A stretch of DNA of 64,000 bases from Giardia intestinalis (GCA_000002435.2 CM018792.1); one strand, 5' to 3'. Shown: positions 3,938 through 40,055, numbered from the stretch's first letter. Notes: a model not told the origin generated them from the letters alone. Program-made: numbers and translations.

Positions 3938-4131
3938 TATTTATTGGTGGTTAAATTTGCTGATTTATAGGCTTTTAGTGTGAACTTAAAATCGGTCGTG
4001 GGTGTCTGCAGTTGACCCACAGAGTTCCCTCTACACGCACGCAGTGACCGATTTTTCAACCCTGCCATCTGCGGCCAACTATCTTCAAAGCGACACGCCA
4101 AAGAAGAGCATCAAACCACGGGGTTTACTCT

Positions 4132-4443: not shown

Positions 4444-4531
4444 CTCGACTATTCTGGGAAGCCTGCCCAATAATATTGTAAACCATTTGAATTTGATTTC
4501 TAGGTGATTATTAGTTGAGCCCCCGAACGAG
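4444..4531. promoter_or_regulatory. 88-bp AT-rich bidirectional intergenic or initiator region shared by the 4443(-) ORF and RPL7(+).
   Basis: Sequence taatattgtaaaccatttgaatttgatttctaggtgattattag. Giardia promoters are short AT-rich elements adjacent to the ATG. Confidence 0.4.
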
Positions 4532-8141: not shown

Positions 8142-8224
8142 TGCACGCTGTGGGGTTCGAACCCACGCGGGGTCGCCCCCATGAGAGCCTAAATCTCACG
8201 CCTTAACCACTCGGCCAAACGTGC
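8142..8224 (-). tRNA. tRNA-Leu (anticodon TAG), type II with a long variable arm, 83 nt.
   Basis: Minus-strand read GCACGTT-TG-GCC-GAGTGGTTAAG-GGC-G-TGAGA-TTTAGGC-TCTCA-TGGGGGCGACCCCGCG-GTGGG-TTCGAAC-CCCAC-AGCGTGC-A. It has a 7-bp acceptor stem with one G-U pair, a 3-bp D stem, a 5-bp anticodon stem with loop TT-TAG-GC, a GGGG/CCCC variable arm and a GGTTCGAAC T-loop. It occupies the 94-bp gap between the ESCRT gene and RPL3. Confidence 0.75.
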
Positions 8225-8312
8225 GCGCTCGCGCGTGGAGCCGGGAGGCAGGCGTGTCCGTATGCCTAACCAATTTGAATTCATTTCCGGGTCTGAAAAG
8301 ACAAGGCCCGCG

Positions 8313-9452
8313 ATGTCCCACCGCAAGTTCTCGTGCTGCCGCAAGGGCAACCTCGGCTACCTCCCCCGCAAGCGCTGCACGCGCGGCCGCGGGCGCTGCA
8401 AGACCTTCCCACCAGACGTCCAGGGCGCGCCCATCCACCTCACGGCCTTCCTCGGCTACAAGGCCGGCTGCACGCACGTCATGCGCTTCATCGACCACCG
8501 CGGCTCGAACCTCCACAACCGCCAGGCCATCGACCAGGCGACAATCATCGACGCCCCGCCAATGATCTGCACGGCCATCATCGGGTACGCCAAGACCCCG
8601 AAGGGCCTCCGCGCCGTGACGACCGTCTGGGCCGCCCACATCGCCGAGCCCGCCATGCGTCGCTTCTACCGCAACTACTTCCACGCGGAGAAGACGGCCT
8701 TCTCGACCTACATGAAGAAGGCCGCCGACGGCACATACATCAAGGAGCAGCTTGGGCGCCTTAAGCAGCACGCTGACGTCATCCGCATTGTCGCCCACAC
8801 CCAGCCTGCCCTGACGCCCCTGAAGCAAAAGAAGGCCGACATCATGGAAATCCAGGTCAACGGCGGAGCGAACGTGGCCGAGAAGGTCGACTATGCGTAC
8901 GCCCTCATGGAGAAGCCGATCTCGATCAAGGACGTCTTCAGCGTGGGAGCACAGATCGACACCATCTCCATCACGCGCGGCCGTGGGTTCGAAGGCGTCG
9001 TCACCCGCTGGGGCGTCACCCGTCTTCCGCGTAAGACCCGCCGCGGAAACCGCAAAGTTGCCTGCATCGGTGCCTGGCACCCGGCCAACGTCCAGTATAC
9101 TGTCGCCCGCGCCGGTCAGATGGGTTACTTCCACCGCACGGACACCAATAAGCAGGTCTTTATGATTGACACAGCGGAGAACCCCAGGTGCTGCACAACG
9201 GAGTTCGATCTGACAGACAAGAGCATCAACCCGGTCGGCGGCTTTGTCAACTACGGCCGCGTCCAGGGAGACTTCATCATGATCAAGGGCACGTGCCCAG
9301 GACCCAAGCGCCGCCCGGTTGTCATGCGCAATGCCCTCCTCCCTCACCGCAACTGTCCTCCGGTCCAGCTTCAGTGGATCAGCACGGCCTCCAAGTTCGG
9401 TCACGGTATCTTCGAGACCGTTGAGGAGCGCAGGCAGTTCTACGCCAAGTAG
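8313..9452 (+). CDS. RPL3: 60S ribosomal protein L3 (uL3)
   Basis: Canonical N-terminus MSHRKFSCCRKGNLGYLPRKR and L3 body (...WGVTRLPRKTRRGNRKVACIGAWHPANVQYTVARAGQMGYFHRT...). The true ATG is at 8313; the track ORF starts upstream at a GTG at 8235. AGTGAAC polyA signal at 9468-9474. Confidence 0.92.
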   Translation: MSHRKFSCCRKGNLGYLPRKRCTRGRGRCKTFPPDVQGAPIHLTAFLGYKAGCTHVMRFIDHRGSNLHNRQAIDQATIIDAPPMICTAIIGYAKTPKGLRAVTTVWAAHIAEPAMRRFYRNYFHAEKTAFSTYMKKAADGTYIKEQLGRLKQHADVIRIVAHTQPALTPLKQKKADIMEIQVNGGANVAEKVDYAYALMEKPISIKDVFSVGAQIDTISITRGRGFEGVVTRWGVTRLPRKTRRGNRKVACIGAWHPANVQYTVARAGQMGYFHRTDTNKQVFMIDTAENPRCCTTEFDLTDKSINPVGGFVNYGRVQGDFIMIKGTCPGPKRRPVVMRNALLPHRNCPPVQLQWISTASKFGHGIFETVEERRQFYAK

Positions 9453-9467
9453 GCCGACCGTGTGCCA

Positions 9468-9474
9468 AGTGAAC
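9468..9474 (+). terminator. Polyadenylation signal AGTGAAC for RPL3
   Basis: AGTRAAY consensus 16 nt after the stop. Confidence 0.5.
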
Positions 9475-9503
9475 CAGGCGCTCCTCCGTTTACTTTGCAA
9501 TGT

Positions 9504-21978: not shown

Positions 21979-23204
21979 GCTTGCGCAAAGTCCTTCCACC
22001 ACTGACCCAAGCCGACCCCTCGCAAGATCCTTAGCGGAGTTGCGTCCGAGATGTGTGCCTGCGTTGCTGTCCAGGTGCATGTGCCGGCCCTGGTGCTTCC
22101 CACAAGCTTGCGAGCATCGAGCTGGCCGCTACCGAACCGTATCAGAAGTCAGCACCAGGATGTAGTCCCATCAGTCAGGCTCTGCAGGCTCCCAGAGCTA
22201 CGCATCAAAAGGCCGTTCTTCTTTGGTTGTGCAGCGTGGGGAGATGCACCGAACTACCACACCCTCTCCGTGTGGCGTGGTTTACGACGGGGGACGGGGT
22301 CCCTGTGCTCATGTCTATCTGCCCAGGACGAGTCGCAGCCCGGGTTGACAATGACAAGCGAGCATCGCCCGGCTCCTTGTCAGCGGGTGGGAGATCCCGC
22401 CACCCTAGTACCCACAGCAACGGGTGCCGATCACTGGCAGAGGGACACGACACCCAGGCTCCCGTTCCTTCCACTGATGGTAGCCCACTATGAAGAGCCC
22501 TTTGTCGCCTGCACCAACAACCTCAGGCACTGTGGGTCAGAGCGCCTCCATAGTGGACAGCGGTAGCACTATGATGATCTGGGGTGACAGGAGTCCCGGT
22601 CTATCAACTCAGGAGACAGCACGCTTTGGGCAATGCTTCCCTCCTGTCCAGATCTGGGAGGACTGGCTGCCTTCTGAGCCCACCTGGCACCTTGTCAGGT
22701 GATGGAGTGTCTTAAAGTATTCATTACAAAAGATCAGAAATAGCGCCATGCATTCCCAATAGACCAGAACGTCTCCTAGGCTACTCTATGCTGATTCGCA
22801 CCTTTCATGGACCCTAGCGATCACTGTAATCTTCTCTCGGGATCCCGCAAGGGACTGTCCTTGAGTGCGATTCCCCCACGACAGCCGGGAGTCGCAGACA
22901 TAATCCAAAGGGATGAGAGTACTACAGAGGCTGAGAGGAGAGCGCCGATGCACAGGGGTCCGCAGAGACCCGGTTCGTACAGGGAAGGCGTGGAGGCTGG
23001 CTCTCCAGGGATGTAGAGCCACCAGGAAAGGAGCTGGCAGTGGGGCTTAGGCGCAGCAGAGGCACCCGATCCGTCCTCTGATTGGCCGCGAGGCAGTAGG
23101 CGCATGGGGCGGCATCACCGCTTGTTTTTGGATTTTCTGCTTCCCTGCGCGTTGTGCAGGGGTCCGCAGTGGGCTGAGTATCACAGGCTACACATAGTAG
23201 ATGC

Positions 23205-23219
23205 GTTTACTACCTAAGT
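23205..23219 (-). terminator. VSP extended polyadenylation signal ACTTAGGTAGTAAAC
   Basis: Matches the conserved VSP 3' element ACTYAGRTAGTRAAY directly after the stop. Confidence 0.6.
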
Positions 23220-23221
23220 AC

Positions 23222-25465
23222 CTACGCCTTCCCTCTGCAGATGAACCACCAGCAGAGGAAGCCGACGAGGCCGGCCACAATGACAACCGCCGCGACAGAG
23301 ATCCCTGCTATGGCACCGGTAGAAAGGCCGCTCTTATTCGTGCTTCCCCCGGTACTTTCACCGTTCATGAGGTAGCAGAGAACGGAGCCACTACCAGCCG
23401 ATGGAGGGGCGCAGCTAGCGCAGTTGGCGACGCCGGTGATGGATCCCCCGTCGCTCTTGTCGCATGCTATACACTTTTCTTTGGACGGGTAGTACCCTGC
23501 AGCGCACACCGTGCACTTGGTGGCGTCGTTCGCATTGCACTCGGAGCACTCAGTGGCGCAGGGAACACACTTCTTAGTGTTACCGCCAGTCTTAGCATAT
23601 CCAGCCTTACACGTGTCGCACTGGTCCTGGCTGGTGCACGTCTTACATCCGGCCGAGCAAGTGATGAGCGCGCCGTTATTCAGCTTGTACCCGTCGGCCG
23701 GAGTCTGACAGGCATCGCTCGCTTCTGCTGCGGCTAAGCAGACGCTCTTTCCGGGGAACTTGGTCGTCTCATAGCAGCCCCCGTTCATACGAAGAAGCCC
23801 GTTGGCGCATTTGTCACAGACACCAGTCCCTTTGGTAGTGCACGTAATAGCCTTTCCGGCCGCCGCCGAGCAGACTCCGTTCTGTGGAAACTGGCCGGCT
23901 TCCTTGCACTTGGAGCAGTAGGCCGTGCCATCGACCGTCAGCTCGCACTTCTCGCAGTTGTTAGCATTTGGCTCGCATCCTGGTTTGCACGTCCCCGTGT
24001 TGCCCTCTCCTTCGTAGCTGAGGGCCTTCTTAGGCTCACAGCTCGTACACCCGTTGGAGTTCCCGTTCGCGCACGTCTTGCACGAGGTATCGCACTTGGC
24101 ACAGGCGGTTTCTTTCTTGTAGTATCCGTCCTTGCAGGTCTCGCACTGTCCTTGCCCGTTGCACAGGAGGCAGTTCTCGACCTCGCACTTCTTGCAGGCC
24201 TTCTTGCCCCCCTCGTTGGTGCCCGCGTAGTAGCCTCCCAGATCTCCGCACGCATCGATGCACTGGCCCGTGGGCGTGAGGGCCTTAGTGCCCTCGCACT
24301 CTGTGCACACCTCCTTGCTTGTCTTCGGCTCACTGCACGTCTTGCAGCCGGGGGTGTTGCACGGCGCCGCAGGGGGGTCGGACTTCTTCATGCACCCGGT
24401 GCCGGCCTCCTCGGGAACGTAGCCCTCAACGCACTCACAAACGCCAGAGGTCTTTTCCTCGTTGGAGTTCAAGGGGCAGCTTTCAACGCACCCCTTCTTG
24501 TTTGGCTGGACCTTCTTCTGGTTTTCGCACGTCTTGCAGGCGACTGCTCCATCGGCGCCCTTCTCGCACGTCGCGCATCCATTGGAGGTCCCCTCGGCGC
24601 ACGCCTTGCACGTCTTCGGCTCAGTGTCGTCGGCGTAGTGGGTGCTTTGATTCTTGCACTCAGTTTCGGTGACGCACGTGCCAGTGTCGCTGCCATTATC
24701 CTTCTTCAGGTACGGCTTGTCGTCCTTACAGGAGGTGCACTTCGCAGCCTCGGTCTTACAGGTCTTGCAACCAGGATCACACGCCTCACAGGTTTTGGTG
24801 CCGCCATTTTTCACGAAGAACCCTTCGGTGCCGGTGCACTCTTCTTCTGTCACGCAGGAGGTGGCTGAATCTGTAGCCGTCTTCAGATACTTACCTTCTT
24901 GGCACGCAGTGCATGTGGCAGCCTTAGTGCCACTAGCTGATAGTTGCTCTGGTTTCTCACAGGTAGCGCACCCAGCCACCCCCGTGTATATCTTATCGCC
25001 AGTAAGTGTTACGCCCGTCGCGTCTCCGCACGAAACAACAGAGTCGTGGGCGTCGTCTGTATCTGCCGGCGGGACAAAGTACTTATTTCCAGCGACAGCC
25101 TCTGTGCACTTACCAGCATCTGCCGCTTGACACATGGCATTGCCAGGGGGTTTTGCTCGTTCATAGCACCCGCCCTTGTACATGAAGGAGTTGCCGTTAC
25201 ATCCTGTACATTTTCCGCCTGCGTGTGTCTTACATACTGCTGTATCAGACGACACATCTGTGCATACCCCGTTGACAGGAGCGCGATCAGCGGGATCTGC
25301 CTTGCATTGAGAGCAATACAATTTACCATCAATCAGAACGTTGCATGCCTCATCGGCACAATTGGTAGTTTGATCTGCACAGGTAGCCGTTCCAGCTTTT
25401 TCTGCTATCTGTGCCGTCCATACAAACTGAAGGATTACCCCCGCGAGAACAAATCTACAGAACAT
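23222..25465 (-). CDS. vsp: Variant-specific surface protein (VSP), 747 aa, copy A.
   Basis: Signal peptide MFCRFVLAGVILQFVWTAQIA, dozens of CxxC motifs, GGCY motifs, and a C-terminal TM plus invariant CRGKA tail (GLVGFLCWWFICRGKA). Confidence 0.93.
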   Translation of the reverse strand: MFCRFVLAGVILQFVWTAQIAEKAGTATCADQTTNCADEACNVLIDGKLYCSQCKADPADRAPVNGVCTDVSSDTAVCKTHAGGKCTGCNGNSFMYKGGCYERAKPPGNAMCQAADAGKCTEAVAGNKYFVPPADTDDAHDSVVSCGDATGVTLTGDKIYTGVAGCATCEKPEQLSASGTKAATCTACQEGKYLKTATDSATSCVTEEECTGTEGFFVKNGGTKTCEACDPGCKTCKTEAAKCTSCKDDKPYLKKDNGSDTGTCVTETECKNQSTHYADDTEPKTCKACAEGTSNGCATCEKGADGAVACKTCENQKKVQPNKKGCVESCPLNSNEEKTSGVCECVEGYVPEEAGTGCMKKSDPPAAPCNTPGCKTCSEPKTSKEVCTECEGTKALTPTGQCIDACGDLGGYYAGTNEGGKKACKKCEVENCLLCNGQGQCETCKDGYYKKETACAKCDTSCKTCANGNSNGCTSCEPKKALSYEGEGNTGTCKPGCEPNANNCEKCELTVDGTAYCSKCKEAGQFPQNGVCSAAAGKAITCTTKGTGVCDKCANGLLRMNGGCYETTKFPGKSVCLAAAEASDACQTPADGYKLNNGALITCSAGCKTCTSQDQCDTCKAGYAKTGGNTKKCVPCATECSECNANDATKCTVCAAGYYPSKEKCIACDKSDGGSITGVANCASCAPPSAGSGSVLCYLMNGESTGGSTNKSGLSTGAIAGISVAAVVIVAGLVGFLCWWFICRGKA

Positions 25466-26474
25466 TGGGGTCAGCCGGTTACTAGGAGACGGACAGAACT
25501 ATTAATACATTATTATCAATCTGTGTGATACACAGTAGAGTGTAATACTGGGCACACTTCTGAACGACGTCACGTGAGTGATGAGAACGCCATCCTGTCA
25601 TTCGCGGAGGGCCTCTCATTCTCCCTCGTTATAGACCGTGGCAACAGAGACACAACAGGCAGCTCGTCCGTCTCCGTAAGCATTCCAGGGAGTCCTGCCT
25701 GTCTGTACGAGGAGGTTTACTCTTCCACCAAGGACGGTTTCCGGCTGCTTCCGGTACATCAGTCGTGCCTGGACCGCTAGTCTGTTGACCGCTCGGGATT
25801 TCAGATATGAAGGCTTGGATGTGTCCAGGTTCTGGTGGCGGTGATGGAGTATTCCACGTGGGTTTTTGCAGGGGCGGGTCTTTCTGAAGCATACCGCAGG
25901 CAGATCTGCGATACACTGACCCACTACCATTGACGGGTGCTCTTGCGCTAGTCTTGTATCTGGTTCGCTGATGATCCCCCCTAGACGACATCTTCCGCCA
26001 TCTCTCGGAGAAGCGCGGTCTCAGACCAACCTCCAGTGGAACAACTCATCAGTTCCGCCTGTGTGGCGGGCTTCAGGCTTACCTGCAGGCGTAATCCAGA
26101 AATTTCACGAGTGGGTCTCGTCATTCCTGGCCAGTTCAGAGACGAGGGTTGGTCGTTAATGATATAATAGGGATCTCCCTTCACTTGTATACCAGGAGTC
26201 TTTTGCGTCTCTCAGTCGCTCCGCAGGGGTGTGCTCAGGCTGAGTATGCACGCCGGTCCTTTCGGGGTTCAGGCCTTCTCGTGGACTCTCTGCTCTATCA
26301 GTGGCGCCTCTCCTTGGTCTGCCGCCTTGGTGGGTGTAACTCTGGTCACTGTCCTTTTTTAGATGCTCCCGTCTGTCAGGGGCCGTCATCGGGCTCTCCG
26401 CTGGCTGGGCCTCTCAGTGTCCGGGCAGCTGTGGCTCGAGTCAGGGCTCCCACGGTCGCGGTCACTTGGGTCTC

Positions 26475-26600
26475 AGTGGGTCAGCTGGTGGGTGAGGCGG
26501 GGTTGGTGGGTGAGGCTGGAGGGCTCTGGTGGGGGCTGAGGCGGGGGGTGTTGTATGTGCCTCTGGATCCGGTGGGCCAGTGGGGTGGTGGGTGATCCCC
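26475..26600. repeat. G-rich tract (GGTGGGTGAGGC-like units, runs of G3-7) about 1 kb upstream of the VSP inside the IR arm, with potential G-quadruplex formation. Mirrored at 30595..30720.
   Basis: ggtgggtgaggcggggttggtgggtgaggctggagggctctggtgggggctgaggcggggggtg... A diverged second copy of the adjoining about 45-bp motif lies at 26960-27010. Confidence 0.45.
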
Positions 26601-27729
26601 TCTCTGTTTGCCAAGGTGGTTGCGTCTGATCCCCAGCCTTCGTTGCACTCCTGAGACAGAGGCACCGACGATCGTGTCGTGTCCCCTGACTGAGCGCCTC
26701 CCTTGGCCCCTGCATGTCTCGGGCAGTACTGCTTCTCTGTTTGACTAGTACGTGAGTGTTGAGGCAGGCCATCGCAGCCTCTCCTGTTGCTCGCTGGTGC
26801 TCTGTGCGGGTCTGCTGAGCCCCTGGCATGCCCTGTCCAGTGCCTCGACGGTAGTTCACCTCGGGCCAGCAGGGGTGTGGATGAGCCTGTGGATGGGATG
26901 GGGTGCTCTCAGGCCTCTAGTGTGATGGCCCTCGAAGACTGGCATGGTGGGGACCGGGTGGGCGGTGTTGTATGTGTCCCTGGTCCGGTGGGCCATGTCG
27001 GGTGATCGCAGCTGTGGTGACTGGAGGCTGTCTATCTGTGACCCATCCCTCTGTGGACTCGGGAGTGCCCTCCGCCCAGGCAACAGTGGTGCTGCTGGGG
27101 CCCTCGCCTGCGGGCGCTGTCCAAAATCTCGCGAGTAAATTCCCGCTCAATTTTTGGCGATGTCCGGAGACGAGGGTTGGTCACGGGCCGTAACGATAAT
27201 CACAGCGGTTGTAAGGAGGAGCTATCTGCGTTCCTCGGCTGTTCCGTGGGCGTGCGCACAGCTGGACCTGAAGCGTCGAAGAGCCCGCGAGGACCCGATC
27301 CGCATTATGAATGCAAGATCGTACCTCCGGGGCCCCCAGAGAGCAATCGTGAGTCTCTACTCGGGGGACCACTCCGAAGACGTTTACTCTCTCAGCAGGA
27401 CACACGTGCTGGCTCTGTGGCCAACCGTGTGAGAGCGCCAAGCAACTAACCGAGCACCTGAGAGAAGCAAACGATGACAGACACAGAGTGCTGGGCGACG
27501 ACAAGTTGATCATTCCGGCCCAGTACCGAACCGGACAGCTGCCATGCTCATCCACCAAGGTGCACGCATGATCGCGAGCATCGAGCAGGCTGGGACTGGG
27601 GTCGCGCTCCCCGCTATCAAGGGCCTGAACGCCCTGGTGGGAAGCCCCAGAAGACTCAAGCAACACAGTAGAGCAGGCCCAGAGTAAGGCAGACCCAGAC
27701 CCCGAGAAGGCGAGACGCCGGATAGCAAA

Positions 27730-29690
27730 CAGGGTGAACAACGCGCTGAGCTTCGGGGCAGTTGCTAAGGCTCTCCGCGCCCTTGATGAGACACCCATGG
27801 TAGACATCAAGTCGGAGAAGGCCGACCGCCCTCAGCGCGCTACACCTGTGCGTCCTCCCGAAGGCTACGTTGGCCTTGACTACCCTCCATCGATGAACTC
27901 GACGGGCTGGAGCCGGCAACCGAGGAGGAAATGAGGAAGGCCCTGTTGGGACTCTCAACAAGAAGGCCTCGGGCCGGTCCAGCTCAAGGCGATGAAGCAG
28001 AGCGACAGCTTCGTGAAGTACCTCACGCAGGCATACAACGAGCTGACCACCCACCCCGAGGCGATGCCAGAGGTGATGGCCATGCTCGAGTTCCGGGCGA
28101 TCCTCATCCCGAAGGAGTCCGACGGATACCGCCCGATCGCGATAGGCGAGACGGTGACAAACATCTTCCACCGCGTCCTGCTGAAGGGCTGATCAGGCAT
28201 GCCAACTACCTCTTGTGCGAACAGATCGCCTTCATGCAGAACGCATACGCGGTAGGTGTGAGGAGGGCCCACGAGCTCATCAGCAGGCGGGGATGCACGC
28301 CGTCTCCCTCGACATAACGAACGCCCTCAACTCGCTCCCGAGGGCAGAGGTCGCCAGAGCCCTGAACGAGGCGGGCGTCCCGAAGGTCATGGTCGACCAC
28401 ATCGGGGACTTCCTCGACCTGAGGCACAGCCGGGACGTGAAGTGCGAGGTCTGCGGCGTCCCCCAGGGCGACCCGCTCAGCATGCTCCTCTTCTGCATGG
28501 CCATCGAGCGCCTCCTGAGACGCCTCAAGGAGAGAGGCATCCCCTTCCTTGCCTATGCGGACGACATCGTGGCGTTCCACGACGAGGCCTACCCGGCAGG
28601 TGTGATAACACAGCTGGCCATGGGCCTGACGATCAGGAGCGACAATGCAAGTCCACCATGGCGGGCGAGGAGGTGACCTTCCTCAACCACCCGGTGTCCC
28701 CCACTCCAGCAAGCCTTACCCCAAAGGCCATCGCAGGTGCTGAGACTGCCCTGAGGAAGATCGAGAACGCCCCAATAACCACCCACCAGAAGCTCATCCT
28801 GCTGTCACTCTGTGTGATCCCGATGGTGAACTACGCCCCCCTGGTCGAGATAACATCGGACAAGGCGGACTACGAGGAGCTGACAGACGTCGCACAAGGC
28901 TTCAGCAAGCTAGCCAACAGAAGCTGCGATCGCCTGGTCGACTTCCTGGCGTACCCGAAGGAGAAGGGCGGCCCGGGCCTGCTCATGCTGGGACTCTACC
29001 ACGACGAGCTGCGGAGGGCATGGACTCCCTGGACGTCAACAAGGGGGCCAGAGACCCGGTGGAGCTGTCGGTGGAAGGCCAGGCACTGCAAGGGAAGGGG
29101 GCCTACTTCAACCGCCTCCTCACGCGCACACACCAGCTTTCGGACAGAGCGGCGGCGTGCTGACCGAGGAGGAAAGGGCCCTGAAGCAGAGAGATGGCTC
29201 GATCATGGGGCAGACAAGAGGCACCTGCCCGGGCTGCCACACGGCAAGGACCCTCGACCGCGACATGATCGTCACGTGCCTGTACCTCCGCGTCTCGGGG
29301 AAGCTCAACCGGAGCTGGAAGTCAAGACCCACAGCCACCTCAGCGACCAGAACCAGAAGCCCGACATCTGGCTCGTCGACAAGTGCAAGGCAGTGGACGT
29401 GCGTGTCATCCAGCCCCGCCAGATGGATGCCTACTACAACGAGAAGGCCAAGAAGTACAGGGACGGGACGCTCCCGATCATCTACGGGACAGATGGATCC
29501 CTCCACCCCAAGTCCAAGGGGCACCTCGAGGAGCTCCACGTGGACCTCTGTCCGGGCTGCCTTCGCCATCGCCTACATGGCTGCAGAGGCGAACGAGCAC
29601 CTGACGGAGCTGATCAGACGCGACCGGGCCGAAAGCCTGGTCACCCAGAGCGACCGTCTCCTGTCATCCTACTTCTGACAACCGAATGAA
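27730..29690 (+). mobile_element. Decayed, frameshifted non-LTR (LINE) retrotransposon fragment carrying reverse transcriptase and a C-terminal CCHC + PD-(D/E)xK (REL-endo) domain, like GilM/GilT/GilD (NeSL/R2 clade). It sits in the unique spacer between the IR arms.
   Basis: RT motif 0 (TEEEMRKALLGLSTRRP), motifs 1/2 (ILIPKESDGYRPIAIGE), A (HAVSLDITNALNSLP), B' (GVPQGDPLSMLLFCMAIERL) and C (FLAYADDIVAF). Downstream lie CPGCH...C and KPDIWLVDKCKAVDVRVIQP (REL-endo). Motifs are spread over at least 3 reading frames, so the copy is non-functional. Confidence 0.7.
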
Positions 29691-31729
29691 TCCATCCCCG
29701 GGACCCGACGACAACGACCGAGAAGGGGCAAAGACTGGACACACAGCCGAGTTGAATCCCAACCAGAAGAGAAAGCCCGCTAGCTGCTGCTGATCTGTAT
29801 GGACAGTATTGAGAATGACAACAAAGACCAGAGCTTCACTCACCGTGAAGGGAGAACAAGGAGAGGCGCTCTAACAGGCCAGCGAACCTGCAGGACGGCT
29901 TGATCTCTGAAAGAACCGATGTGCACATCCAGTCTGAGTGTACTCCTGTAGAATAGCCGAGGAACGCAGATAGCTCCTCCTTACAACCGCTGTGATTATC
30001 GTTACGGCCCGTGACCAACCCTCGTCTCCGGACATCGCCAAAAATTGAGCGGGAATTTACTCGCGAGATTTTGGACAGCGCCCGCAGGCGAGGGCCCCAG
30101 CAGCACCACTGTTGCCTGGGCGGAGGGCACTCCCGAGTCCACAGAGGGATGGGTCACAGATAGACAGCCTCCAGTCACCACAGCTGCGATCACCCGACAT
30201 GGCCCACCGGACCAGGGACACATACAACACCGCCCACCCGGTCCCCACCATGCCAGTCTTCGAGGGCCATCACACTAGAGGCCTGAGAGCACCCCATCCC
30301 ATCCACAGGCTCATCCACACCCCTGCTGGCCCGAGGTGAACTACCGTCGAGGCACTGGACAGGGCATGCCAGGGGCTCAGCAGACCCGCACAGAGCACCA
30401 GCGAGCAACAGGAGAGGCTGCGATGGCCTGCCTCAACACTCACGTACTAGTCAAACAGAGAAGCAGTACTGCCCGAGACATGCAGGGGCCAAGGGAGGCG
30501 CTCAGTCAGGGGACACGACACGATCGTCGGTGCCTCTGTCTCAGGAGTGCAACGAAGGCTGGGGATCAGACGCAACCACCTTGGCAAACAGAGAGGGGAT
30601 CACCCACCACCCCACTGGCCCACCGGATCCAGAGGCACATACAACACCCCCCGCCTCAGCCCCCACCAGAGCCCTCCAGCCTCACCCACCAACCCCGCCT
30701 CACCCACCAGCTGACCCACTGAGACCCAAGTGACCGCGACCGTGGGAGCCCTGACTCGAGCCACAGCTGCCCGGACACTGAGAGGCCCAGCCAGCGGAGA
30801 GCCCGATGACGGCCCCTGACAGACGGGAGCATCTAAAAAAGGACAGTGACCAGAGTTACACCCACCAAGGCGGCAGACCAAGGAGAGGCGCCACTGATAG
30901 AGCAGAGAGTCCACGAGAAGGCCTGAACCCCGAAAGGACCGGCGTGCATACTCAGCCTGAGCACACCCCTGCGGAGCGACTGAGAGACGCAAAAGACTCC
31001 TGGTATACAAGTGAAGGGAGATCCCTATTATATCATTAACGACCAACCCTCGTCTCTGAACTGGCCAGGAATGACGAGACCCACTCGTGAAATTTCTGGA
31101 TTACGCCTGCAGGTAAGCCTGAAGCCCGCCACACAGGCGGAACTGATGAGTTGTTCCACTGGAGGTTGGTCTGAGACCGCGCTTCTCCGAGAGATGGCGG
31201 AAGATGTCGTCTAGGGGGGATCATCAGCGAACCAGATACAAGACTAGCGCAAGAGCACCCGTCAATGGTAGTGGGTCAGTGTATCGCAGATCTGCCTGCG
31301 GTATGCTTCAGAAAGACCCGCCCCTGCAAAAACCCACGTGGAATACTCCATCACCGCCACCAGAACCTGGACACATCCAAGCCTTCATATCTGAAATCCC
31401 GAGCGGTCAACAGACTAGCGGTCCAGGCACGACTGATGTACCGGAAGCAGCCGGAAACCGTCCTTGGTGGAAGAGTAAACCTCCTCGTACAGACAGGCAG
31501 GACTCCCTGGAATGCTTACGGAGACGGACGAGCTGCCTGTTGTGTCTCTGTTGCCACGGTCTATAACGAGGGAGAATGAGAGGCCCTCCGCGAATGACAG
31601 GATGGCGTTCTCATCACTCACGTGACGTCGTTCAGAAGTGTGCCCAGTATTACACTCTACTGTGTATCACACAGATTGATAATAATGTATTAATAGTTCT
31701 GTCCGTCTCCTAGTAACCGGCTGACCCCA

Positions 31730-33973
31730 ATGTTCTGTAGATTTGTTCTCGCGGGGGTAATCCTTCAGTTTGTATGGACGGCACAGATAGCAGAAAAAGC
31801 TGGAACGGCTACCTGTGCAGATCAAACTACCAATTGTGCCGATGAGGCATGCAACGTTCTGATTGATGGTAAATTGTATTGCTCTCAATGCAAGGCAGAT
31901 CCCGCTGATCGCGCTCCTGTCAACGGGGTATGCACAGATGTGTCGTCTGATACAGCAGTATGTAAGACACACGCAGGCGGAAAATGTACAGGATGTAACG
32001 GCAACTCCTTCATGTACAAGGGCGGGTGCTATGAACGAGCAAAACCCCCTGGCAATGCCATGTGTCAAGCGGCAGATGCTGGTAAGTGCACAGAGGCTGT
32101 CGCTGGAAATAAGTACTTTGTCCCGCCGGCAGATACAGACGACGCCCACGACTCTGTTGTTTCGTGCGGAGACGCGACGGGCGTAACACTTACTGGCGAT
32201 AAGATATACACGGGGGTGGCTGGGTGCGCTACCTGTGAGAAACCAGAGCAACTATCAGCTAGTGGCACTAAGGCTGCCACATGCACTGCGTGCCAAGAAG
32301 GTAAGTATCTGAAGACGGCTACAGATTCAGCCACCTCCTGCGTGACAGAAGAAGAGTGCACCGGCACCGAAGGGTTCTTCGTGAAAAATGGCGGCACCAA
32401 AACCTGTGAGGCGTGTGATCCTGGTTGCAAGACCTGTAAGACCGAGGCTGCGAAGTGCACCTCCTGTAAGGACGACAAGCCGTACCTGAAGAAGGATAAT
32501 GGCAGCGACACTGGCACGTGCGTCACCGAAACTGAGTGCAAGAATCAAAGCACCCACTACGCCGACGACACTGAGCCGAAGACGTGCAAGGCGTGCGCCG
32601 AGGGGACCTCCAATGGATGCGCGACGTGCGAGAAGGGCGCCGATGGAGCAGTCGCCTGCAAGACGTGCGAAAACCAGAAGAAGGTCCAGCCAAACAAGAA
32701 GGGGTGCGTTGAAAGCTGCCCCTTGAACTCCAACGAGGAAAAGACCTCTGGCGTTTGTGAGTGCGTTGAGGGCTACGTTCCCGAGGAGGCCGGCACCGGG
32801 TGCATGAAGAAGTCCGACCCCCCTGCGGCGCCGTGCAACACCCCCGGCTGCAAGACGTGCAGTGAGCCGAAGACAAGCAAGGAGGTGTGCACAGAGTGCG
32901 AGGGCACTAAGGCCCTCACGCCCACGGGCCAGTGCATCGATGCGTGCGGAGATCTGGGAGGCTACTACGCGGGCACCAACGAGGGGGGCAAGAAGGCCTG
33001 CAAGAAGTGCGAGGTCGAGAACTGCCTCCTGTGCAACGGGCAAGGACAGTGCGAGACCTGCAAGGACGGATACTACAAGAAAGAAACCGCCTGTGCCAAG
33101 TGCGATACCTCGTGCAAGACGTGCGCGAACGGGAACTCCAACGGGTGTACGAGCTGTGAGCCTAAGAAGGCCCTCAGCTACGAAGGAGAGGGCAACACGG
33201 GGACGTGCAAACCAGGATGCGAGCCAAATGCTAACAACTGCGAGAAGTGCGAGCTGACGGTCGATGGCACGGCCTACTGCTCCAAGTGCAAGGAAGCCGG
33301 CCAGTTTCCACAGAACGGAGTCTGCTCGGCGGCGGCCGGAAAGGCTATTACGTGCACTACCAAAGGGACTGGTGTCTGTGACAAATGCGCCAACGGGCTT
33401 CTTCGTATGAACGGGGGCTGCTATGAGACGACCAAGTTCCCCGGAAAGAGCGTCTGCTTAGCCGCAGCAGAAGCGAGCGATGCCTGTCAGACTCCGGCCG
33501 ACGGGTACAAGCTGAATAACGGCGCGCTCATCACTTGCTCGGCCGGATGTAAGACGTGCACCAGCCAGGACCAGTGCGACACGTGTAAGGCTGGATATGC
33601 TAAGACTGGCGGTAACACTAAGAAGTGTGTTCCCTGCGCCACTGAGTGCTCCGAGTGCAATGCGAACGACGCCACCAAGTGCACGGTGTGCGCTGCAGGG
33701 TACTACCCGTCCAAAGAAAAGTGTATAGCATGCGACAAGAGCGACGGGGGATCCATCACCGGCGTCGCCAACTGCGCTAGCTGCGCCCCTCCATCGGCTG
33801 GTAGTGGCTCCGTTCTCTGCTACCTCATGAACGGTGAAAGTACCGGGGGAAGCACGAATAAGAGCGGCCTTTCTACCGGTGCCATAGCAGGGATCTCTGT
33901 CGCGGCGGTTGTCATTGTGGCCGGCCTCGTCGGCTTCCTCTGCTGGTGGTTCATCTGCAGAGGGAAGGCGTAG
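31730..33973 (+). CDS. vsp: Variant-specific surface protein (VSP), 747 aa, copy B. Its protein is identical to copy A, and the two are oriented head-to-head.
   Basis: Identical translation to 23222..25465(-). Has the CRGKA tail, with ACTTAGGTAGTAAAC at 33976..33990. Confidence 0.93.
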   Translation: MFCRFVLAGVILQFVWTAQIAEKAGTATCADQTTNCADEACNVLIDGKLYCSQCKADPADRAPVNGVCTDVSSDTAVCKTHAGGKCTGCNGNSFMYKGGCYERAKPPGNAMCQAADAGKCTEAVAGNKYFVPPADTDDAHDSVVSCGDATGVTLTGDKIYTGVAGCATCEKPEQLSASGTKAATCTACQEGKYLKTATDSATSCVTEEECTGTEGFFVKNGGTKTCEACDPGCKTCKTEAAKCTSCKDDKPYLKKDNGSDTGTCVTETECKNQSTHYADDTEPKTCKACAEGTSNGCATCEKGADGAVACKTCENQKKVQPNKKGCVESCPLNSNEEKTSGVCECVEGYVPEEAGTGCMKKSDPPAAPCNTPGCKTCSEPKTSKEVCTECEGTKALTPTGQCIDACGDLGGYYAGTNEGGKKACKKCEVENCLLCNGQGQCETCKDGYYKKETACAKCDTSCKTCANGNSNGCTSCEPKKALSYEGEGNTGTCKPGCEPNANNCEKCELTVDGTAYCSKCKEAGQFPQNGVCSAAAGKAITCTTKGTGVCDKCANGLLRMNGGCYETTKFPGKSVCLAAAEASDACQTPADGYKLNNGALITCSAGCKTCTSQDQCDTCKAGYAKTGGNTKKCVPCATECSECNANDATKCTVCAAGYYPSKEKCIACDKSDGGSITGVANCASCAPPSAGSGSVLCYLMNGESTGGSTNKSGLSTGAIAGISVAAVVIVAGLVGFLCWWFICRGKA

Positions 33974-33975
33974 GT

Positions 33976-33990
33976 ACTTAGGTAGTAAAC
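33976..33990 (+). terminator. VSP extended polyadenylation signal ACTTAGGTAGTAAAC
   Basis: Conserved VSP 3' element 3 nt after the stop. Confidence 0.6.
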
Positions 33991-35855
33991 GCATCTACTA
34001 TGTGTAGCCTGTGATACTCAGCCCACTGCGGACCCCTGCACAACGCGCAGGGAAGCAGAAAATCCAAAAACAAGCGGTGATGCCGCCCCATGCGCCTACT
34101 GCCTCGCGGCCAATCAGAGGACGGATCGGGTGCCTCTGCTGCGCCTAAGCCCCACTGCCAGCTCCTTTCCTGGTGGCTCTACATCCCTGGAGAGCCAGCC
34201 TCCACGCCTTCCCTGTACGAACCGGGTCTCTGCGGACCCCTGTGCATCGGCGCTCTCCTCTCAGCCTCTGTAGTACTCTCATCCCTTTGGATTATGTCTG
34301 CGACTCCCGGCTGTCGTGGGGGAATCGCACTCAAGGACAGTCCCTTGCGGGATCCCGAGAGAAGATTACAGTGATCGCTAGGGTCCATGAAAGGTGCGAA
34401 TCAGCATAGAGTAGCCTAGGAGACGTTCTGGTCTATTGGGAATGCATGGCGCTATTTCTGATCTTTTGTAATGAATACTTTAAGACACTCCATCACCTGA
34501 CAAGGTGCCAGGTGGGCTCAGAAGGCAGCCAGTCCTCCCAGATCTGGACAGGAGGGAAGCATTGCCCAAAGCGTGCTGTCTCCTGAGTTGATAGACCGGG
34601 ACTCCTGTCACCCCAGATCATCATAGTGCTACCGCTGTCCACTATGGAGGCGCTCTGACCCACAGTGCCTGAGGTTGTTGGTGCAGGCGACAAAGGGCTC
34701 TTCATAGTGGGCTACCATCAGTGGAAGGAACGGGAGCCTGGGTGTCGTGTCCCTCTGCCAGTGATCGGCACCCGTTGCTGTGGGTACTAGGGTGGCGGGA
34801 TCTCCCACCCGCTGACAAGGAGCCGGGCGATGCTCGCTTGTCATTGTCAACCCGGGCTGCGACTCGTCCTGGGCAGATAGACATGAGCACAGGGACCCCG
34901 TCCCCCGTCGTAAACCACGCCACACGGAGAGGGTGTGGTAGTTCGGTGCATCTCCCCACGCTGCACAACCAAAGAAGAACGGCCTTTTGATGCGTAGCTC
35001 TGGGAGCCTGCAGAGCCTGACTGATGGGACTACATCCTGGTGCTGACTTCTGATACGGTTCGGTAGCGGCCAGCTCGATGCTCGCAAGCTTGTGGGAAGC
35101 ACCAGGGCCGGCACATGCACCTGGACAGCAACGCAGGCACACATCTCGGACGCAACTCCGCTAAGGATCTTGCGAGGGGTCGGCTTGGGTCAGTGGTGGA
35201 AGGACTTTGCGCAAGCAGCTCTGTGGCCTGTTGGTCGCATTCTCCTCTGCCGTAAAGGACACCTACCAATGATCGTTACGAACTGGATGACCCCCGTCTG
35301 TCTTTGAGACTCACCAGTGTGCACAGTTGTCGATGAGGCGGAGTCGTCCACCAGTCACGCCCTGCTGGGCTAGTCACTGTCACCGGTGGCTAAGGAGCAG
35401 CAGGAGCCGTCTGCCTCCGCACGGAAGGCCTCGAGGGGTCGTGTTACGCTGGAAGCCGGTCACTGTTCCACATATCCGCTACCTAATTATGGGCAGGAGT
35501 ATCGGACACGAGAAGAGCTACGACAAGGACTCGCTGGGGTAAGCGTGCTCTGCAGCTCCTTTGGATGCCCCAGTCCCTTACGGCTCAGGCACTGGGGCCT
35601 CAATGCATCTGCCCCTTACTGGGTTCTCCACCGGCTAGTGCGACCTAGGCAGACACAGAGGAGTCCCGGCTCCTGTTCTGTGCAAGCTCGTCAGACCGGC
35701 CTGGTCGTGAGGTTTGGAGACACCTAGGTCGAGTACTCCCAGGTCCCTACTCCAGACAGGCAATCTTGTGGTGGGATCATTCACTCTAGAGGGTAGTCCA
35801 GAGCTACCAACAAAATAAACCCGATTATCCAATAACTTCCACCTTTTGAAAAATC

Positions 35856-36374
35856 ATGTCTGTCACGAGTCGTTTGATGCGTGAATACCAGAAGTTCTCG
35901 AAGACAGACATTCCAGGAGTCATGGCGCTGCCAGACCAAAAGGATGAGCGCTGTTGGAATTGCATAATTCTGGGGCCCGCCGGGACAGCTTGGGAGAATG
36001 GTAAGCTATGTATAAGGATGAAATTTCCCAACGAGTACCCTATCAAACCTCCTTCTGTACATTTCGTAACATCGATGTATCATCCAAACGTTTATACGGA
36101 CGGCTCGCTTTGTTTAGATATTTTGCAGTCACAGTGGTCTCCTTGCTTTACAATCTTGTCTGTCCTCCTTTCCATTCAGTCCCTTCTGACAGACCCGAAT
36201 CCATCATCTCCGGCCAATAGCGATGCCGCGCACAAATATAACTGTGATATAGATGCATACAATCGCGAAGTAAGAGCACGCATGGAAAGGTCGCAGAGCT
36301 TTATCAAAGAAGAGCCGTGGTGTAGAGTCTATGAGGCGCTTCAGAATAGAAAAGTAGCAGATAACACTTCATGA
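35856..36374 (+). CDS. Ubiquitin-conjugating enzyme E2, Rad6/UBE2A-B-like.
   Basis: UBC fold with HPN and active-site Cys, nearly collinear with Rad6: [40 protein letters not shown]...[16 protein letters not shown] versus [40 protein letters not shown]...LLDEPNPNSPANS. Confidence 0.85.
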
Positions 36375-36551: not shown

Positions 36552-39500
36552 ATGGCAAGCACAGAAATCAAAGGGTCATACACTGCTACAGGAGAGGTAA
36601 ATTTTGAAACAACGCTCACTGCCACAACGCTCATACAGCTAGCAGTGACAGCAGGGGTACTTCTTATTTTCTCCCTATTCAAGTATTTACTCCCAATGGT
36701 ATTTTGTCCGTTCTACATGCGGCGGCAAAGGAAATTTAGCATATGGTTTCTAGACGTATTTTGCCAGCCCATTTCGCAATACGCTAGATGTGGAAATGTG
36801 GCTGCCATATTTGTTTTGTATCAGACTATGGTGATTTCCTTATTCGGTATCATGTCTCTCTTTGGCTTAACAATCCTCATACCTGTCTATGTGGTGGGCG
36901 TAGACCAAGACTTTAACACAGACTATCGTACAGGCTGGTCGAAGATGTCTCTTACACACGTGGAAGCAGGCTCCTATGCCATTTTAGTTCCGACGGTCGT
37001 TGCGACAATCTACACATTCATGATGATGGAGTTCTATGATCAGTTCCACATCGTGTATATCTATTTCCGTCAACGTGCTCTACGTCGCTCGGCACCACAG
37101 AACTTCGTTGTCATGCTGGATCAGCTCCCCTCAGGCATAAGAACATATGGAGACCTTGCTAAGTCTCTTGAAGGCGTCTTTCAGCAGGGTGTCATACGCT
37201 ATATAATTCCCGTTCCCGAGCATTCTCTGAGCTTAACGTTCAAATACAAGAAGCTGCTAAAGCTAATTCTAAATCAGCATAAGACAGATCGGTTGGTGAA
37301 TTACTATGTAACGGAATTGGAGGCCTACATGAACAAAATAGGATTGCACGGACTTACATTGGCCGAAATAGACGATCCGACCGTGAAACAGCGTGTCCAG
37401 AAGATGCAGAATAAGATATCTAAGTCGCAAATGGCACTGATTCCTTTTAAGACTAAATCACGTCAACTAAAGTTAGAAATACTGGCGTATGCCCATGAAA
37501 TGAATATTGACCTCTCCCACCTTATCGGAATCAAGCATCTACCGCCGCCAATGCCTGCCAATGTTACATCTTTCAACAAGCTTACTACATGTACGCGGAT
37601 GACTGCTGAAGACGTTATTGCAGAACGGGATAACTTTGACATCGAACTTAATCTACCTAGCATTCAGACTCTTTCACGAGTGGGCTCCAACCTTACTGCC
37701 TTTCAAGGCCCTAGCAGGACTATGTTAACCAGGGATGAAGAGTCTCAAGATAGAAGCATTCCAGAGTCCAGTGACAGATCTGTTTCACAATTTAACAATA
37801 TATATGCGTCACTACCTACCTCAACGATGCAGCTCTCTAATCCTTCTAATGTGTTGATCTCTCCAAAGATTTCGCACGACCTGCGTGTCAACAATTTAAT
37901 TGGCCCACTGATAGGCATGGGTTCAGTTGATGGAATTCCAAGCGCTCCTCGAGTCGTCTCAGCAGGCAGGCAAGCTACCGAACCATTTCATCTCAGTACA
38001 ATCTATAGTGCACAAGAAGGAAGCTTTCGTGAGGCAGAAAGCGTGTCTGCAGGAGCCACGATGAAACCAGCTAGCTCTTCTAGCAGAACAGAGTATGCGT
38101 TATCCACACAACGACCCATCAGTGCAGAAGAGCGATATCGGGAGCAGCAGGCAACATTAGGCGAGGTCTCCACGAGGAGCTTAAGGCCAGTGCTTACAAA
38201 GTATCTCCTGGGTATACCCAAGAGTGTTGCAGAGGTAATAAGAACCACGTTTCCTGACCACGGGCTCGGGAAAATAGATGCTGCTACAATAAAAAGCAAG
38301 ACACGGCAGCAGCACAGGGCCCACATCGATACTCCGATCGGCCGGACCGCATTTGTGGTTTTCAACTCACAGATCGAAGCGACCCTTTGCTCTAATTCGC
38401 TACTTTATATGAACGCAACCGAGCCAAAGGTCGGATCTGCACCAGAGTATAATCAAATAATCTGGGGGAACACAGCATACTCAAAGAGGTTTAGATTAGT
38501 GATGCGCTCAATTTTCCTAGTTCTTCTCCTATCTCTTTTCATTGGCTACTTTGTTCCTCAGACATATATCTTAAACTTGGTTGCAAATAACAGTGAGCAA
38601 TGGTTTAATTCTTTCTATATTAGAATGTGTAAGCCAGGCCAAGGGCGCTACAAGTGTGCTCAGACGGTCTCTCTCACAAAAGGAACTGTAAGCGACGTTG
38701 GGGGAGTTGTCTGTTACATTTGCTATAAAACAGCGTCTATGAGCATTACCCTTCTTCCTGTCATAGTCCAAGTTATCTTTATGGCCCTCCTGCCCTTAGT
38801 TATAAAGTACCTTTCTATGCTTGCCTTTTGCACTAGCAACACAGAAAAAGCCAATCTCGAATACAGAATTAACTTTCTTTTTCTCATTTTTATTGTAGGA
38901 ATAATTCAGATCATGCTGACCTCCACCTTCAACGAGTATGGAACTATAGATTTTGAACAGCTAACAGGCCTAACGTTGAACGGACTGGTGGCCAATATTG
39001 GCCGCAATTTTCCTGCACAAATCTTTACATTTATTAACTACTTAATTACCAAGTATTTCCTTTTCTCTGTCCTCACGCTTCTACGGATTCCCGATTTGCT
39101 GCTGGGTCTGCTCAAGCTTATGATTACCAAAGACCCTATCGCTAAGAGGCGAATAGCTTACTACACAGGATTTCCTTACCTTAAACAATTAGCATATGGC
39201 TCTCACATGACGGTGATAGGCTTTATGTACTCAATCGTCGCACCTATATCCACGGTGTTTGTCTTTATCATTTACACCGTGTTTTCAATAGTCAACCGCT
39301 TTAATATTCTCTATGTGTATAGACCTCTCTCAGATTCCGAGATGTCCGCTGCCACAGACATTATTAAGTATGTTAGCGGAGATACTTATTTGGGATTTTT
39401 GCTAATGATGATAGCGACGATTGCATTTCTTATCGTTCTCAACGAAACCATCACGCTTGTCTGTGCGTACTTCCTCGCGACAATCATGATCATCGCGATA

Positions 39501-40055
39501 ATAAGAAAGGTGTACGTTGACTCTAAATTTAAGCGCGCTATGATGTCGATGCACTTGAGCGATTGGGGCGCCAAGACCATGTGCAAGATAAATCCATATC
39601 GTGAGAAGCGCAATCCCATTGAAGCTGACGATGGAATAGTAACATACGGGGAGGAGAAACACCTTAATGACCTCCTGGGCGCAAACGGTGCCGATCAGTG
39701 GGACAGGTACAAGGCAGACATAACCAGCATGGAAGTGGTTGATCAAACGCGACAAAAGCTCTCAAAAATATTTACTGAGAGAATGAGAATCAAACCAAAC
39801 ATTAACATGAATCACTTACAGAAGAATGAACTGACCGCCGCGCCCCTCAACCTGGCAGAACCACCTGTATCATACATGAGACGTACCTCAATTATTTTCG
39901 AAGATTTCCAGTGTGAGATTGCTAACGAACTGTCTATCAAGAACCATGAACTCACAGATGACGAAGTAAGGGCTATTGCCGCGATGTACACCCATCCAGC
40001 TTTTGCCCTCTCATATGTTTACGGGCCGAATAGGCCTGACGAAGACATACGTTAA
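36552..40055 (+). CDS. OSCA/TMEM63/CSC1-like (DUF221) putative mechano/osmosensitive channel, paralog 2 (1167 aa, with a long cytosolic insertion and C-terminal extension).
   Basis: Same motif set as paralog 1: YICYKTASMSITLLPVIVQV, NFLFLIFIVGIIQIML, GRNFPAQIFTFINYLITKYFLFSVL, AYGSHMTVIGFMYSIVAPISTVFVFIIYTVFSIVNRFNILYVYRP. Confidence 0.7.
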   Translation: MASTEIKGSYTATGEVNFETTLTATTLIQLAVTAGVLLIFSLFKYLLPMVFCPFYMRRQRKFSIWFLDVFCQPISQYARCGNVAAIFVLYQTMVISLFGIMSLFGLTILIPVYVVGVDQDFNTDYRTGWSKMSLTHVEAGSYAILVPTVVATIYTFMMMEFYDQFHIVYIYFRQRALRRSAPQNFVVMLDQLPSGIRTYGDLAKSLEGVFQQGVIRYIIPVPEHSLSLTFKYKKLLKLILNQHKTDRLVNYYVTELEAYMNKIGLHGLTLAEIDDPTVKQRVQKMQNKISKSQMALIPFKTKSRQLKLEILAYAHEMNIDLSHLIGIKHLPPPMPANVTSFNKLTTCTRMTAEDVIAERDNFDIELNLPSIQTLSRVGSNLTAFQGPSRTMLTRDEESQDRSIPESSDRSVSQFNNIYASLPTSTMQLSNPSNVLISPKISHDLRVNNLIGPLIGMGSVDGIPSAPRVVSAGRQATEPFHLSTIYSAQEGSFREAESVSAGATMKPASSSSRTEYALSTQRPISAEERYREQQATLGEVSTRSLRPVLTKYLLGIPKSVAEVIRTTFPDHGLGKIDAATIKSKTRQQHRAHIDTPIGRTAFVVFNSQIEATLCSNSLLYMNATEPKVGSAPEYNQIIWGNTAYSKRFRLVMRSIFLVLLLSLFIGYFVPQTYILNLVANNSEQWFNSFYIRMCKPGQGRYKCAQTVSLTKGTVSDVGGVVCYICYKTASMSITLLPVIVQVIFMALLPLVIKYLSMLAFCTSNTEKANLEYRINFLFLIFIVGIIQIMLTSTFNEYGTIDFEQLTGLTLNGLVANIGRNFPAQIFTFINYLITKYFLFSVLTLLRIPDLLLGLLKLMITKDPIAKRRIAYYTGFPYLKQLAYGSHMTVIGFMYSIVAPISTVFVFIIYTVFSIVNRFNILYVYRPLSDSEMSAATDIIKYVSGDTYLGFLLMMIATIAFLIVLNETITLVCAYFLATIMIIAIIRKVYVDSKFKRAMMSMHLSDWGAKTMCKINPYREKRNPIEADDGIVTYGEEKHLNDLLGANGADQWDRYKADITSMEVVDQTRQKLSKIFTERMRIKPNINMNHLQKNELTAAPLNLAEPPVSYMRRTSIIFEDFQCEIANELSIKNHELTDDEVRAIAAMYTHPAFALSYVYGPNRPDEDIR

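Follow-up and report, generated by a model that had tools for sequence, protein, structure and literature searches.

Anatomy and likely history of the reverse transcriptase pseudogene at the centre of a VSP palindrome in Giardia intestinalis

What lies at the centre of a long palindrome that carries two identical surface-antigen genes, and how did it come to be there? The question is raised by a stretch of 64,000 nucleotides (nt) of the Giardia intestinalis genome (GCA_000002435.2, CM018792.1), called here the window, with positions counted from its first letter. In the window, two copies of a gene for a variant-specific surface protein (VSP) point away from each other on the arms of a perfect inverted repeat, and the DNA between the arms contains the remains of a non-LTR retrotransposon (one without long terminal repeats). 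In the account of the locus that we consider likely, the centre would be an inert, 5'-truncated GilD-like copy, descended from a dead ancestor that spread as DNA, and the arms would have been homogenised later.

The locus itself proved to be known. The gene at 36552-40055 encodes a protein that matches XP_001704562.1/KAE8304501.1 of G. intestinalis ATCC 50803 (WB) without any difference, and Table 2 of Xu et al. 2020 (Sci Data 7:38, PMC7000408) lists on chromosome 4 the pair d112801/112801, oriented <- ->, with products of 747 amino acids (aa), 6,264 bp apart and with a reverse transcriptase (RT) pseudogene, psiRT, between the genes. Since gene size, orientation, distance and psiRT all agree, this is the same locus, and the centre of the palindrome is the RT pseudogene locus already published by these authors; the finding is correct and not new. 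The table entry and the window show no difference, and the paper contains neither the family of the remnant nor its lesions nor its extension into the arms. The same authors (PMC7000408) report 19 duplicated VSP pairs from 200x PacBio data and an RT remnant in four of the seven divergent pairs, the three besides the present one being 50229/d50229, 111933/111936 and 119706/119707, and a 2022 preprint describes retrotransposon remnants as frequent between head-to-head VSP pairs.

The arms of the palindrome, 21979-27240 and 29955-35216, are reverse complements over 5,262 nt without a single mismatch, and their pairing ends abruptly at 21978/35217, as revealed by a base-by-base check. The unique centre between them occupies 27241-29954 (2,714 nt) with the symmetry axis at 28597.5, so that the spacer coordinates and the axis near 28597 proposed in the initial annotation of this DNA are exact. 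The repeat finder returned arms 21 nt too long, its ungapped extension having entered partly complementary bases; the true edge is 27240/27241. The left VSP gene lies at 23222-25465 on the minus strand and encodes 747 aa ending in CRGKA, the signature tail of Giardia VSPs; it corresponds to GL50803_d112801 or 112801. The right gene, at 31730-33973 on the plus strand, has an open reading frame (ORF) of 747 aa identical to that of the left copy. The two genes diverge, pointing outward from the centre, and the gap between the ORFs (31730-25465-1) is 6,264 bp. An exact database look-up of the 747-aa protein gave no match. The two identical ORFs, their identical flanks and the abrupt divergence points place the locus among the inverted VSP pairs, of which Adam et al. 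2010 (BMC Genomics 11:424, PMC2996952) counted 14 in the older Sanger assembly, one of them known from earlier work, and which have been found in G. muris too (Xu et al. 2020 Microb Genom). Like those 14, the present pair combines identical inverted ORFs and flanks, identical until an abrupt divergence, with a few kb of unique DNA between them. It differs from the four head-to-head pairs of that study in its exceptionally long arms, that is to say in the identity upstream of the start codon, which extends over 1,775 nt here and 158-729 nt there, and in the distance between ORFs (6,264 bp compared with 2.2-3.8 kb). An 8-nt perfect palindrome, TTGCGCAA, is located at 21981-21988 and 35207-35214, in both cases 2 nt inward from the arm's outer edge. 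Chance could explain it, or it could mark a template-switch site where the duplication ended.

Motifs, a Pfam RVT_1 match and homology to an ORF of assemblage B characterise the centre, 27241-29954 on the plus strand, as the body of a dead 5'-truncated non-LTR retrotransposon, and its predicted domain order is zinc finger, RT, CCHC and restriction-like endonuclease. The C2H2 finger CWLCGQPCESAKQLTEHLREANDDRH at 27407-27484 aligns to CWICGLACENAKQLAEHLRESNDDRH and scores E=0.0044 with zf-C2H2, below the Pfam cut-off; it matches the last of three fingers read in the fuller assemblage-B proteins P0001 and P0039. The RT domain, motifs 0 to C, extends over 27965-28676, with an RVT_1 match and an alignment to R2, and is broken by frameshifts at 28186, 28285 and elsewhere. 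In translation it includes motif 1/2, FRAILIPKESDGYRPIAIGE (28091-28150), motif A (28296-28337), motif B, GVPQGDPLS (28452-28493), and motif C, FLAYADDIVAF (28545-28577), all on the plus strand. Further along the same strand, 29226-29458 holds the remains of the CCHC motif and of the endonuclease (KPD...D.V...K..KY), comprising CPGC at 29226-29258, KPDIWLVDKCKAVDVRVIQP at 29357-29416 and YNEKAKKY at 29435-29458. This region is in register with the CCHC, RKPDI, VDVQV and EKRNKY of R2Bm. A CCHC-like region followed by a PD-(D/E)xK motif had been proposed earlier from the sequence; the collinearity with R2Bm upholds the order of the two, although half of the CCHC motif has been deleted from the window copy. 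When the centre was read in three frames, the motifs were found in two of them and the linking segments in the third.

Every motif string quoted in the initial annotation is present between 27407 and 29458, and the doubt it attached to them, that they might be chance matches, is answered by the homology searches. The stitched RT segment matches Pfam RVT_1 with E=1e-18 and 68.2 bits, the cut-off being 29.6 bits. The stitched protein finds Giardia duodenalis proteins with E=1e-267 (GSB_155064, 66% identity), together with two from isolate DHA2, and its best relatives of solved structure are the R2 retrotransposon proteins 9nl2 (E=3e-11 on RT) and 8gh6, with LAYADD aligned. For the R2 search, 15 residues lost from the CCHC region of the window copy were restored from a sister copy, L005. 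The CCHC/endonuclease stretch taken alone is not significant, with i-Evalues of 0.2 and 27 for the two R2 proteins; its support is the collinearity, and it has no Pfam match. The element shares with R2/NeSL/CRE-type elements (R2Bm, PDB 8gh6; 9nl2) the single-ORF layout and the central RT, and probably the N-terminal C2H2 fingers and the C-terminal CCHC and PD-(D/E)xK motifs. It differs from them in that the relationship is distant, there is no evidence of specificity for ribosomal DNA or another site, and the window copy is non-functional. Elements with R2-like endonucleases are often site-specific. Besides the element at 27241-29954, no second RT remnant was found in the window.

How badly the copy is damaged was assessed by aligning it to a near-intact assemblage-B copy, L004, which encodes P0001 and has a sister ORF of 1,548 aa (P0039), and to two assemblage-A2 copies from isolate DHA2, L005 (AHGT01000170.1) and L006. 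Relative to the assemblage-B reading frame, the window copy has 30 indels, 23 of them not multiples of three; as four of the 23 are lesions of the reference itself, about 19 frameshifting indels belong to the window copy. The raw count of 23 compares with 18 in L005 and 15 in L006. No stop codon derived from a substitution was seen in the corrected frame of the window copy. Three deletions private to it, of 16, 22 and 45 nt, each lie between direct repeats of 9-10 nt (microhomology); with the largest, at 29258, the CCHC motif lost its H...C half. Homology to the assemblage-B ORF begins at about residue 757 of 1,548, some 10-20 nt from 27241, and the 5' truncation has thus cost about 2.3 kb of coding sequence, including two upstream zinc fingers. 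The earlier description of a dead non-LTR remnant split over at least three frames is borne out by the frameshifting indels and the truncation. Judged from these lesions, the central element is enzymatically inert today.

To which Giardia family does it belong? The most likely answer is GilD (Genie 2), a dead family reportedly described in 2001-2002, as GilD by Arkhipova & Morrison 2001 and as Genie 2 by Burke et al. 2002 (Mol Biol Evol 19:619), the latter being said to report that every Genie 2 copy carries inverted repeats, at most 172 bp long; the inverted repeat of the window copy measures 155 nt. Four points speak for the name: the host is WB, the copy is dead, it has deletions at microhomologies, and it sits beside VSPs and not at a telomere. 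GilD/Genie 2 is likewise found in WB, where all copies examined are degenerate, with microhomology-flanked deletions, in gene-poor DNA beside VSPs. VSPs flank the element on both sides here as well as in L004, L005 and L006. One difference from the published family is the near-intact 1,548-aa ORF P0039 of assemblage B, so that "dead" may hold for assemblage A only.

It is improbable that the copy belongs to GilM (Genie 1) or GilT (Genie 1A), two families that are found at telomeres and may still be active. Their domain order is the same, but the window copy is single, has a broken ORF and is associated with neither a telomere nor a head-to-tail array. Just one further Giardia RT family was retrieved; it comes from isolate P15, is 36-38% identical to the element overall and 45% in the RT core, and hence is a different family. 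The identity between Genie 1 and Genie 2, reportedly about 35%, is close to this value. A protein search with the P15 RT (P0028) for GilM/GilT proteins of WB returned only P15 entries among its matches. In the part of the work of Arkhipova's group that concerns GilD (PMC2861651), this family is placed in gene-poor regions next to VSPs, not at telomeres, and is credited with microhomology-mediated deletions, a description that the dead, VSP-adjacent window copy matches. Xu et al. 2020 (PMC7000408), for their part, set GilM copies at chromosome ends apart from the psiRT remnants between VSP pairs.

The position within the chromosome is consistent with this. A telomere scan of the window found no TAGGG repeats, and on either side of the VSP island lie housekeeping genes, whose products include ribosomal protein L3, a ubiquitin-conjugating enzyme and kinases. 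The subtelomeric framing adopted in the initial annotation is therefore not supported, the more so as the literature puts the dead family beside VSPs (PMC2861651, in the passages on GilD). A tandem-repeat scan of the island was empty.

The element is not confined to the spacer, because the alignment of window positions ~27089-30109 with L005 915-4023 (88.7%) and with L006 9193-12295 (86.7%) is unbroken across both spacer edges. The limits first assigned to it, 27241 and 29954, have to be moved outward, as homology runs about 155 nt into both arms. On the right, the stop codon and 3' untranslated region (UTR) at 29679-30109 (plus strand) extend 155 nt into the arm and end in a 93-nt block, 30017-30109, which is 83-85% identical to L004 3891-3983; the remaining UTR cannot be aligned with that of assemblage B. 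The block lies 331 nt downstream of the stop codon in the window and 429 nt downstream in L004. Beyond about 30109 the high-identity homology to L005 and L004 does not continue; the L006 contig ends there and so cannot show a boundary. Two assemblage-B contigs, L013 and L014, stop short of the 3' UTR and are therefore uninformative about the block, and a metagenome scan for it gave no match. On the left, the inner arm at 27086-27240 (minus strand) is an inverted duplicate of 29955-30109; it has 98.5% identity to the L005 left repeat and borders directly on the element's truncated 5' end. The inverted repeat of about 155 nt is common to the window, L005 and L006; L005 has the same architecture, with arms of its own (163-1069 and 3869-4773, 95.5% identical), and L006 is a more decayed version. 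Taken together, the alignments indicate that the retroelement-derived DNA is ~27086-30109 and that the innermost arms are an inverted repeat belonging to the element family.

Two other sources of this inverted repeat were tried and rejected. The inner arms are not a degenerate VSP tail, as tblastn with the VSP of the locus itself gave there only matches of E=0.3, and classic twin priming inverts a more 5' part of an element and does not yield a duplicate of its 3' end. The last 110 nt or so of the spacer (29826-29938) are about 70% similar to 26234-26347 (inverted) and 30848-30961 (direct), approximately 1 kb further out in each arm. This match between spacer end and outer arm is also present in L006, and it may represent an older, decayed repeat layer in the 3' region of the element.

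The sister copies allow the order of events to be reconstructed in part. Three frameshifts (-1 at 27859, -1 at 28285 and -11 at 29545) are common to the three assemblage-A copies, namely the window, L005 and L006, and both junctions of the element with the arms, including the one at its 5' end, are shared by all three. The common ancestor was therefore already rearranged and dead. This suggests that the assemblage-A copies spread as dead DNA, by duplication or recombination, and not by retrotransposition.

The window copy has since acquired about 11 private frameshifts and a 6-7% substitution difference from its sisters, while its arms show 0 differences in 5,262 nt; the window arms thus appear to be younger than the centre. 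In L005 the arms are 96-100% alike save for an innermost patch of about 35 nt, where they are only some 55% alike, so that a left and a right type can be told apart. Because the right repeat of the window carries the left-type version of this patch, the window arms seem to have been homogenised after the loci separated, from left to right over the innermost repeat. Assemblage A2, too, probably has a repeat whose outer boundary is that of the window: a DHA2 contig with the right flank, L008, ends exactly at 35217, and in an A2-like scaffold, L007, the right flank passes into the arm without a break.

Several further observations concern the arms and the sister loci. The inner arms at 26081-26662 and 30533-31114 are homologous to the L005 arms at 79% (71% for L006), below the identity of the centre. 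Both window arms contain a stretch of 427 nt (26663-27088 and 30107-30532) that neither L005 arm possesses; indels have therefore been mirrored within each locus. In L005 the core of psiRT plus repeat is flanked by VSPs whose 3' ends face the centre (tail-to-tail), while the psiRT pairs of WB are reported as divergent.

Comparison across assemblages adds an older layer. Between A and B, codon position 3 differs at 45% of sites and position 2 at 12%, so the family was once active and under selection on the A-B branch. The copies in assemblage B and in gut metagenomes carrying this assemblage (P0039, P0041 and P0045, from the cluster of P0001; L004, L013 and L014) have a near-intact ORF of at most 1,548 aa with a C-terminal frameshift only, and those from different samples agree at 97-99%. 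In assemblage B, the family that is termed dead in WB may have been active much more recently.

How, then, did the palindrome form around the element? Two origins had been suggested at the outset, insertion of the element into a pre-existing palindrome and an inverted duplication formed around it. The second fits the data better, and the first is disfavoured by the shared junctions and the three shared frameshifts. That an active element retrotransposed into the fragile centre of an existing palindrome and then decayed there is, in our estimation, extremely improbable. The element does sit exactly on the symmetry axis, and elements with R2-like endonucleases are often site-specific. Against this, family homology crosses both spacer edges; the element was dead and joined to the repeat before the locus took its present form, since the 5' junction and the frameshifts occur elsewhere too; and the centre, with its 11 private frameshifts, is far older than arms that show no differences. 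A search for target-site duplications at the spacer edges, which the initial annotation had proposed, found no direct repeat at 27240/29955. For the wider unit 27086-30109 the flanks are the palindrome arms, and a target-site duplication cannot be scored. The missing duplication argues against insertion at this site and not against a retroelement origin.

A second possibility is a single double-strand break at about 27241, inside the element, followed by fold-back priming near 29954 and outward copying of the right flank, which would account for truncation and duplication in one step. It accords with the left arm being the reverse complement of the sequence to the right of 29955 with the truncated 5' end abutting it, with a 3-nt match (TTC/GAA) just inside both junctions, and with the continuity of right arm and right flank in the A2-like scaffold. 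A microhomology of 3 nt is, however, no evidence by itself, and the inter-locus homology ends at 27086/30109 like the assemblage-B block, which suggests a repeat bounded by the end of the element. Moreover, the junction is shared by loci whose arms beyond the ~155 nt are only 71-79% alike, or whose VSPs are otherwise oriented (L005). Such a break would consequently be ancestral and cannot alone explain perfect arms of 5.2 kb, because it is shared by loci with diverged arms. We regard this explanation as possible, with only tentative confidence.

According to the favoured account, the ancestral copy would have been a dead and already rearranged structure of the form inverted repeat, psiRT, inverted repeat, and this structure would have spread through VSP-rich regions by duplication or recombination at the DNA level. 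At the window locus the arms would later have been extended, homogenised or both, through arm-to-arm gene conversion or repeat-primed break-induced replication, with conversion running from left to right over the innermost repeat. The unique centre would have escaped homogenisation, its only role being that of a spacer that makes a 13-kb palindrome tolerable. The short repeat itself could equally possibly have come from retrotransposition, with both nicked target strands priming from the 3' end of the RNA; such an origin is conceivable because the inter-locus homology ends where the block conserved in assemblage B ends.

Large palindromes such as the ampliconic ones of the human Y chromosome are kept identical by arm-to-arm gene conversion. 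The present palindrome resembles them in its near-perfect arms, its freely evolving unique spacer and arms too alike for the age of the structure. It differs in size (5 kb compared with 10 kb to 1.5 Mb), and conversion is deduced here from one paralogous locus.

Several points weigh against the favoured account or parts of it. The dead A copies agree at 93-94% in the ORF, compared with 84-86% in the 3' UTR and 71-79% in the inner-arm flanks, and between the window (27262-29200) and L005/L006 codon position 3 differs at ~9% and position 2 at ~4.7%, a ratio of about two. One dead ancestor followed by neutral decay predicts neither the conservation of the ORF nor the codon-position pattern. The GilD name rests on lifestyle, lesion type and exclusion. 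In L004 the 93-nt block overlaps the tail of an opposite-strand VSP-like ORF, and the block could therefore be conserved flanking DNA and not the end of the element. Finally, polishing of the long-read assembly could account for part of the perfect arm identity. As for the first of these difficulties, synonymous and non-synonymous changes stand at ~47:53 among the three A copies that share the inactivating frameshifts (27262-29200), and both patterns could stem from a mutation bias at third positions, which are rich in G+C, or from conversion between centres.

The stronger proposition, that assembly or polishing created the arm identity or even the whole palindrome, appears very unlikely. It is true that zero differences in 5,262 nt are unusual, that short-read assemblies break around the island at ~18691 and 35640-36048, and that reads from near-identical arms cannot be assigned during polishing. 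Nevertheless, the Sanger assembly had independently revealed identical inverted VSP pairs, one of the 14 having been described earlier (PMC2996952), and the 200x PacBio data of Xu et al. yielded 19 such pairs. L005, from a different isolate and technology, has the same architecture with arms 95.5% alike, and the DHA2 contig ends precisely at the outer arm boundary, 35217. A chimeric read, furthermore, would give a palindrome without a spacer and not one with a unique centre of 2.7 kb.

Some features of the surroundings deserve mention. Independent short-read assemblies of WB break to the left of the palindrome near 18691 and to its right at 35640-36048. Both places are well beyond the arms, and the VSP island, which is repetitive or hard to assemble, therefore exceeds the palindrome in width. 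The region at 18.7-22 kb is G+C-rich, with only spurious-looking ORFs and no Pfam match, and at 35217-35380 the A2 sequences are about 91% identical to the window, compared with 97-98% in the adjoining genes. At the window edge, 2-175 on the minus strand, a weak similarity to VSPs (36% over 58 aa, E=0.007) may belong to another cysteine-rich gene cut by the edge, and a tenascin/EGF-rich ORF of 1,093 aa is located at 58043-61324. In a stretch of 61% G+C two ORFs overlap on opposite strands: 8235-9452 (plus) encodes ribosomal protein L3 (E=7e-136), and 8196-9500 (minus), which has no match, is probably a composition artefact. The link to small RNAs drawn in the initial annotation is speculative. 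By our own reasoning, transcription outward from the centre of the palindrome would read both head-to-head VSPs in sense and would give no obvious VSP antisense RNA.

With regard to the published record, the present analysis adds that element DNA reaches about 155 nt into both arms, that junctions and lesions are shared with other loci, and that the arms appear to have been homogenised after the centre diverged. This added anatomy may help annotation and thinking on the origin of identical antigen-gene pairs, and it carries little weight as a discovery. It also allows a further idea to be put forward, which we consider doubtful: the ~155-nt inverted repeat of dead GilD/Genie 2 copies might have seeded the head-to-head VSP palindromes instead of merely being carried along in them. 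If the DNA broke next to the element, one repeat could invade the other or fold back on it; outward copying would then mirror the neighbouring VSP, and arm-to-arm conversion would afterwards keep both antigen genes identical. Should this be so, the status of the family in assemblage B, with its near-intact 1,548-aa ORF, would be worth examining, and a dead retrotransposon would have shaped part of the architecture of the gene family responsible for antigenic variation in Giardia, a modest but real link.

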